Sequence record: AF056278.1
Origin: a phage
Length of the DNA: 784 nt
Reading direction: 5' to 3' (one strand)
Part shown: in pieces, positions 22-784 of the stretch
Layout of the letters: each line of letters begins with the position of its first letter
How positions within the stretch are numbered: the stretch's first letter is position 1
Made by a program: the position numbers and the translations under genes
Notes under the pieces: generated by a model
Database searches by the model: none
The model's input: only the letters and a program-made list of their open reading frames with translations
Told to the model about the DNA's origin: nothing

Positions 22-195
22 CTTGAAACTATGGACGAAAGCGGCGTTTTTTACGATCTGAATGTTTGCGCTACTCCCGCCGGATGCTATGAAACAACGG
101 GGCACGTTTTAGGTTTACAATATGGCGACGTCCACGCTGAAAAACTGGATGATGATTGCGCCGCTGCGTCATGGGCTGGCGAAAATAGCCGTTAG
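22..195 (+). CDS. 3' end of an unidentified ORF, 5'-truncated at the clone boundary; product unknown
   Basis: Frame open from insert start to TAG at 193-195; translation LETMDESGVFYDLNVCATPAGCYETTGHVLGLQYGDVHAEKLDDDCAAASWAGENSR has ordinary protein-like composition. Codon choice (GCG, CTG, GGC, CCC) and GC of about 50% by my hand count are higher than the adjacent 196-307 segment (about 37%). No ribosome-binding site precedes the ATG at 31, so if real it is the C-terminal end of a longer gene. Only 58 codons, so weak. Confidence 0.3.
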   Translation, partial: LETMDESGVFYDLNVCATPAGCYETTGHVLGLQYGDVHAEKLDDDCAAASWAGENSR

Positions 196-307
196 GTGTA
201 ATACCCTCTTGTGCTAATATTCCAGAAACAGGTAGACGGAAGAAACGTTTGTCTATTCCGAAATCAATAACGTCTACTGTATTAACATAGGGTCTTGATA
301 CTTCCAT
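71..307 (-). CDS. 5' portion of a gene translationally coupled to the terS-like gene (position suggests terminase large subunit, not demonstrated); probably truncated or disrupted near position 200
   Basis: ATG at 307..305 overlaps the upstream TAA (309..307) as TAATG, with a GGAGGT Shine-Dalgarno 9 nt upstream. The first ~35 codons ([35 protein letters not shown], about 203-307) are protein-like. The rest of the ORF (about 71-200) is Arg/His/Gln-rich (FRQPMTQRRNHHPVFQRGRR...), typical of a non-coding or antisense frame, and overlaps the plus-strand ORF. The other two minus frames have stops at 192-194 and 214-216. The 78-aa extent is what the ORF track gives, not a confident gene model. Confidence 0.35.
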   Translation of the reverse strand: MEVSRPYVNTVDVIDFGIDKRFFRLPVSGILAQEGITPNGYFRQPMTQRRNHHPVFQRGRRHIVNLKRAPLFHSIRRE

Positions 308-777
308 TACTTTTTACCTCCAGTAGCTAGGGAAGTAATTAAGTCCATGTAGTTTTGGTCCCCAGCTCCAGCAATAATGTTATTNTGAATATTGGTCNGA
401 TTAGCAGGAGCACGGACAGCAGCTTTAGCTTTTTCTAACTCCACCATCATTTTCATCTCTTCCATCTTCATTNGGTGTGCTTTCCAGAGAATATCCATAA
501 TATCCTGGTCAGAACCCATGCCAGTTTNTTCTAGCTCCTCTAGTTNACGTTTAATAACTTCATCTAGAACACCAAACAAACGATCCCTATTACGGAATCC
601 ACTTTCCATAAAAATATCATTTAAGTAGTTCTTAACTTCACTACGATTCATAATATCTCGGAAAGCAATTTCGGACATTCCAAGACTCCGTGCGGCAGAA
701 GGCACATCACTGCCGCACTGTAAATAAGCTTCAATCACATCCATCCCTTCAGGGACATAAGATCTNTAGCTCNCCAA
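307..777 (-). CDS. terS: Phage terminase small subunit-like protein (TerS) with N-terminal helix-turn-helix DNA-binding region; 5' end uncertain
   Basis: Continuous 156-codon minus-strand frame ending TAA at 309..307. The N-terminal segment [37 protein letters not shown] resembles, from memory, the conserved HTH pattern of the Terminase_2 (PF03592) small-subunit family. A Met/Glu/Lys-rich helical segment ([19 protein letters not shown]) follows, consistent with an oligomerisation helix. Size (~150 aa), low-GC codon usage and coupling to a downstream gene fit a phage packaging module. The first codon in the track is TTG at 777, and codon 768..766 is TAN, which could be a stop. Alternative starts are ATG 744..742 or GTG 738..736. 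Five residues are X because of Ns. Confidence 0.55.
316..321 (-). promoter_or_regulatory. Shine-Dalgarno sequence (GGAGGT) for the gene starting at 307, embedded in the terS-like 3' end
   Basis: Minus-strand reading of 325..305 is TACTGGAGGTAAAAAGTAATG: a perfect GGAGG core with 9-nt spacing to the ATG, and the terS TAA stop overlapping that ATG. A canonical strong Gram-positive-style ribosome-binding site. Confidence 0.6.
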
Positions 778-784
778 NNAACNC

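Follow-up and report, generated by a model that had tools for sequence, protein, structure and literature searches.

Record AF056278.1 is very probably a chimeric shotgun clone of two unrelated restriction fragments of bacteriophage BF23

The genome of the lytic Tequintavirus BF23 has been described, with terminal repeats of ~9.7 kb and two-step DNA injection (PMC10644984). In T5, second-step transfer is reported to require A1 and A2 (bioRxiv 10.1101/866236). In the BF23 genome sequence (OR083247.1), the terminase large subunit gene, terL, lies directly after the small subunit gene, terS, and is intact, encoding a TerL of 438 aa with matches to Terminase_6N (E = 9e-15) and Terminase_6C (E = 3e-11). 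The same order, terL directly following terS, is shared by BF23 and the listed relatives with an annotated gene under the match, 17 of 17. On the laboratory side, a classical way to build libraries is to digest DNA with AluI plus HaeIII, which yields blunt fragments that are quasi-random. Here, we compare the 784 nucleotides of sequence record AF056278.1 (the whole stretch analysed, referred to as the window) with BF23, with co-ligation chimeras of such shotgun libraries, and with TerS-only modules of the kind associated with phage-inducible chromosomal island (PICI)-like satellites.

A blastn search of bases 22 to 784 against 50,697 phage records returned 553 matching records, all of them T5-like phages. 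The best of them, BF23, matched at 98.8% over window positions 188 to 765 (record positions 101167 to 101745, annotated as terminase small subunit and terminase large subunit). When bases 22 to 200 alone were searched by blastn against the phage records, BF23 matched at 100% over positions 2090 to 2257 on the opposite strand (runner-up phage, 95.8%), in a region annotated as left terminal repeat and DNA transfer protein A1. The initial annotation of this DNA had proposed mapping the two segments separately, and doing so placed them noncontiguously and inverted in one genome, the signature of a junction. In BF23, the A1 and terL pieces lie on the same strand and ~99 kb apart, or ~5.6 kb apart counting the right terminal-repeat copy (a distance derived from the 9743-bp repeat annotation), whereas the window has them side by side and in opposite orientations. 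Because each side matches a different, nonadjacent part of one genome at ~100%, the discontinuity is not due to chance, and because the pieces are mutually inverted, a simple deletion cannot make the join. The earlier suspicion of a truncation or junction was thus well founded: a junction lies at 188/189 (slashes mark the point of a join or cut). The features of the window are as follows.

Positions 1 to 21, no strand assigned: vector polylinker, CA(G)GTC(G)ACTCTA(G)AGGATCC, with SalI, XbaI, and BamHI sites.
Positions 22 to 188, plus strand: piece from inside A1, the BF23 gene for a DNA transfer protein, with 167/167 identity to OR083247.1 from 2257 to 2091.
Positions 188 to 189, no strand assigned: junction AG/CC, an AluI half-site next to a HaeIII half-site, very probably an artificial blunt-end ligation.
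Positions 189 to 307, minus strand: first 119 nt of terL (codons 1 to 39 and 2 nt of codon 40), matching BF23 terL without a difference from the annotated start onward.
Positions 321 to 316 (316 to 321), minus strand: terL Shine-Dalgarno sequence GGAGGT, 8 nt before the start codon ATG (307 to 305).
Positions 307 to 784, minus strand: terS, encoding the terminase small subunit (a 160-aa protein in BF23), matching phrog_3802 (E = 1.3e-78).
Positions 754 to 784, no strand assigned: degraded read tail, with 5 N among the last 19 bases.

To the right of the junction, the window is BF23 sequence almost letter for letter. Positions 189 to ~753 equal BF23 from 101168 on its plus strand, the sole differences being 5 Ns and one G/T call beside an N. 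The gene start that had been recognized at 307 from a Shine-Dalgarno sequence and a TAATG overlap is genuine: GGAGGT stands at 321 to 316, the terL ATG (307 to 305) overlaps the terS stop TAA (309 to 307) as TAATG at 309 to 305 on the minus strand, and in the annotated BF23 genome both the Shine-Dalgarno sequence and the 1-nt terS-terL overlap are identical. The terS gene is translationally coupled to terL. The terS match covers positions 13 to 159 of the 159 of the phrog_3802 profile, and its first few codons are missing at the read end and in the degraded tail. With this full-length profile match and its place directly upstream of terL, the gene can be assigned by sequence to the T5-like small terminases. 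Pfam searches of three window open reading frames (ORFs) gave nothing significant, the fragments being too short or the family absent from Pfam. BF23 terS itself (positions 3120 to 3602 of the extracted locus L001) and BF23 A1 (positions 697 to 2361 of locus L002) likewise match no Pfam family at an E value of ≤0.01 and are recognized by PHROG only.

The minus-strand frame that starts at 307 translates into BF23 TerL residues 1 to 40 and then into Arg/His-rich nonsense (YFRQPMTQRRNHH...; YFRQPMTQRRNHHPVFQRGRRH...), where genuine TerL goes on from residue 41 as PQIAIINALEDPRH... (PQIAIINALEDP...). The initial annotation had described this frame as protein-like to about position 203. The loss of sense that it noted is real; the position is not, since the TerL frame is authentic for 39 codons plus 2 nt and the break falls at 188/189, just outside the 190 to 310 interval in which it had been sought. 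The TerL fragment in the window matches no Pfam or PHROG family and comprises residues 1 to 40 only, ahead of the N-terminal ATPase domain, whose Pfam match in the whole protein begins at residue 62; intact BF23 TerL has both this domain and the C-terminal RNaseH-like nuclease domain. The terL piece is therefore part of a bona fide terL gene and not a functional TerL. Nothing is truncated in the phage; terL is cut at a HaeIII site in the clone.

To the left of the junction lies part of A1. By exact string search, window positions 22 to 188 are A1 codons 269 to 323 plus 2 nt of codon 324 (frame offset 0 at codon 269), in frame with the plus-strand ORF at 31 to 195, so that 56 of the 554 codons of A1 are present. 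The fragment matches phrog_1745, "DNA transfer protein" (E = 4.5e-13; profile positions 257 to 308 of 542), and this profile match, together with a location within the part of the terminal repeat that is transferred in the first step, puts it in the T5 A1 family. The ORF at 31 to 195 encodes A1 residues 269 to 324 (LETMDESGVF...WAGENS) and stops at TAG 193 to 195; after residue 324, genuine A1 runs on as LLDILKPK..., where the window gives R and a stop. The fragment therefore has neither its native start nor a real stop in the window, and TAG 193 to 195 arises by chance from antisense terL, 5 nt after the join. The Arg/His-rich stretch had been seen to run antisense to this ORF, and it is present as described. 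Each frame loses sense because, past the join, it reads the other gene in antisense: the terL frame crosses AG/CC into antisense A1 and gives Arg/His-rich nonsense, and the A1 frame crosses into antisense terL and meets a chance TAG.

Across the join, the window reads GCGAAAATAG/CCGTTAGGTG, where BF23 A1 has ...AATAG/CTTGC and BF23 terL has ...GAGGG/CCGTTAGG. In BF23, the A1 piece is bounded on its left by ...GCGCCAG/CTTGAAACT (CCAG/CTTGAA) and on its right by ...GAAAATAG/CTTGCTTG (AATAG/CTTGCT), and the terL break lies in ...TTTGAGGG/CCGTTAGG; the window has the hybrid ...GAAAATAG/CCGTTAGG. All three visible fragment ends are exact cleavage points of blunt-cutting four-base enzymes in BF23 (AG/CT, AG/CT, and GG/CC). 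The A1 piece is a complete 167-bp AluI-AluI fragment, with AG/CT at both ends and no internal AluI or HaeIII site, and the terL-terS piece starts exactly at the HaeIII half-site GG/CC, with no internal HaeIII site within the read. At a density of 58 AluI and HaeIII sites in 9747 nt at these BF23 loci, the chance that three independent random ends would all fall on AluI or HaeIII cuts is ~2e-7 (~1.6e-6 if any of four blunt four-cutters is allowed). Since the A1 piece ends at AG/CT and the terL-terS piece starts at GG/CC, AG/CC is the hybrid that a blunt-end ligation would give. Microhomology at the join amounts to a single shared G at 188, and there is no linker. A chimera made with Sau3AI or BamHI was considered and rejected, as the junction and its vicinity lack GATC (present at 17, 55, 582, and 761 only); other blunt cutters (RsaI, SmaI, HincII, EcoRV, DraI, and SspI) were also rejected, having no site there.

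These data point, with high confidence, to two unrelated BF23 restriction fragments that were co-ligated in vitro, that is, to a cloning artifact and not to a biological feature. BF23 DNA would have been digested with the blunt-cutting four-base enzymes AluI and HaeIII. The 167-bp AluI fragment of A1 would then have been joined blunt to blunt to one end of a HaeIII fragment, which is predicted from the next HaeIII site in BF23 (OR083247.1 ~102522, within the receptor-binding-protein gene) to be 1355 bp long and to hold 119 nt of terL, the whole of terS, and a portion of that third gene. The joined pair would have entered a pUC/M13-type vector next to its BamHI site, at the SmaI position. Six uncut AluI sites (AGCT at 325, 364, 421, 427, 533, and 727) were found in the reliably read part of the HaeIII-ended fragment, and we infer from them that the AluI and HaeIII digests were either separate (and pooled) or partial.

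The window resembles AluI/HaeIII shotgun co-ligation chimeras closely: vector stands at the read start, noncontiguous segments are joined at half-sites, the small fragment is a complete digestion product, and neither linker nor microhomology is present. Nothing substantial sets it apart from them, the sole irregularity being three instead of five Cs at the vector-insert join. A chimeric clone was among the explanations first offered, and it is the one favored by the mapping, the half-sites, and the vector flank.

The junction was also sought beyond BF23. None of the 553 matching records covered bases 22 to 784 or spanned the join in one piece. A 161-nt probe centered on the junction matched 448 phage records, 0 of which covered ≥80% of it in one place, and neither the IMG/VR viral contigs nor the GTDB species-representative genomes contained an exact match to a junction 28-mer. 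The parts of the window are thus noncontiguous and inverted in the source, end on enzyme cuts, and are flanked by vector, and their junction is absent from the records searched, as in a chimeric clone.

The join might instead have existed before cloning, through a genuine rearrangement in the cloned BF23 stock, such as an inversion or illegitimate recombination between A1 and terL in a defective genome. Both segments do come from the same phage, and the right-repeat A1 would be only ~5.6 kb from terS if the repeat arithmetic holds. We consider this very unlikely, however, because both breakpoints and the other A1 end lie exactly on AluI or HaeIII cuts (P ~ 2e-7) and the junction is in no record or contig searched. 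Furthermore, a phage without TerL beyond residue 40 could not package DNA, and a genome lacking terL past codon 40 could not self-package. The narrower form of this idea, that AG/CC pre-existed in a BF23 subpopulation carrying an A1-terL inversion and that the three half-site coincidences are accidental, is more improbable still. Rearrangement after cloning in E. coli, or template switching during library preparation, does yield chimeric inserts, and with a vector-insert join 2 C short of the ideal SmaI join the clone is not wholly textbook. Such events have no reason to hit restriction half-sites at three ends, though, and they would have operated here on no microhomology except the shared G at 188; we regard them as highly improbable, on a par with a rearranged stock.

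The remaining explanations have a probability close to nil. One holds that the window represents a TerS-only packaging module that has lost TerL by deletion, whether in a phage satellite, a PICI-like element, or a defective prophage, as had been raised initially. Just 39 authentic terL codons stand behind terS in the window, and a terS without a complete terL behind it is a likeness to PICI-like modules, if a superficial one. The window differs from them in being ~100% identical to a lytic T5-like phage, the Tequintavirus BF23, that has terL intact at the same spot, and in containing neither satellite genes nor host flanks: its flanks are vector and an internal A1 fragment. The search for a full-length terL downstream of terS in the source genome, suggested as a check in the initial annotation, found the intact 438-aa TerL of BF23 directly after terS, which contradicts a TerS-only origin. 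An equally negligible probability attaches to a native small ORF followed by a convergent gene after terS, or to a single-base indel that breaks a long TerL frame. In favor of this, the ORF at 31 to 195 resembles a protein, and its end nearly coincides with the point at which the minus-strand frame decays. Yet the supposed small ORF consists of TerL codons 1 to 39, and the supposed convergent gene is an internal A1 fragment (codons 269 to 324) lacking both the A1 start and its true continuation. Nor does an indel account for the break, as no frameshift restores TerL: no frame of window 22 to 188 encodes TerL residues 41 onward, and the sequence 5' of 189 belongs to a different locus. Co-ligation in vitro therefore remains our strongly preferred explanation.

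The A1, terL, and terS genes of BF23 were all already sequenced and annotated, and the feature is not biological. AF056278.1 provides no evidence for a TerL-less or satellite-like packaging module, or for a new small ORF after terS, in T5-like phages. Its value is mainly practical: wherever assemblies or databases make use of the record, it deserves a flag as vector contaminated and chimeric.

Base composition agrees with the mapping but was set aside as junction evidence. The reported rise in GC content from about 37% (196 to 307) to about 50% (22 to 195) was reproduced at 37.5% and 50.0%. At the true boundary, the shift is modest (49.7% for 22 to 188 versus 39.9% for 189 to 765; Fisher P = 0.026), in keeping with the initial caution that composition alone is weak evidence. 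The step reflects GC-richer A1 (45.6%) versus terS (39.8%) and terL, which together lie at ~40 to 42%. Within the A1 locus, ~15% of all 167-nt segments are as GC-rich as the A1 piece.

The scattered Ns and the first letters of the window (CANGTCNACTCTANAGGATCC) suggest its laboratory origin. Positions 1 to 22 differ from the pUC polylinker string by 3 Ns only, and we take positions 1 to 21 to be a polylinker like that of pUC18/19 or M13mp18/19. Insert sequence starts at about base 22, directly after the BamHI site and at the position of the SmaI site. The window is thus, in our judgment, very likely a single-pass, Sanger-type read of a plasmid or M13 clone with a chimeric BF23 shotgun insert. 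A literature search for the library of origin and its published method identified none and returned the BF23 genome paper. Vector polylinker remained in the deposited sequence (positions 1 to 23), and the vector-insert join reads GGATCCCTTG, with three Cs. A perfect join of SmaI (GGATCCCC/) to AluI (/CTTG) would give five Cs, and a filled-in BamHI end joined to AluI would give two. The shortfall is likely, though not proven, to reflect homopolymer compression or under-calling, or nibbling of the ends. Under-calling is plausible because the read also drops one G from the BF23 GGGG run at ~751 to 754.

That missing G shifts the terS frame and accounts for a spurious TTG "start" at 777 in the ORF list. 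Alignment to BF23 ends after AGATCT (760 to 765), and BF23 has an RsaI site (GTAC) exactly where the read ceases to align. The last ~20 bases gave no convincing alignment to the BF23 continuation or to the pUC polylinker, the best being the 5-nt AGCTC of the pUC SacI region. Read-end decay is a more likely explanation of the tail past 765 than a second junction. Elsewhere in the read, window positions 473 and 474 are NG where BF23 has TT, within a terS Lys codon (...WKAHKMKM...). The G at 474 is the only called base in 189 to 753 that differs from BF23, and since it stands beside an N, an error in base calling is the probable cause, rather than a true difference between strains.
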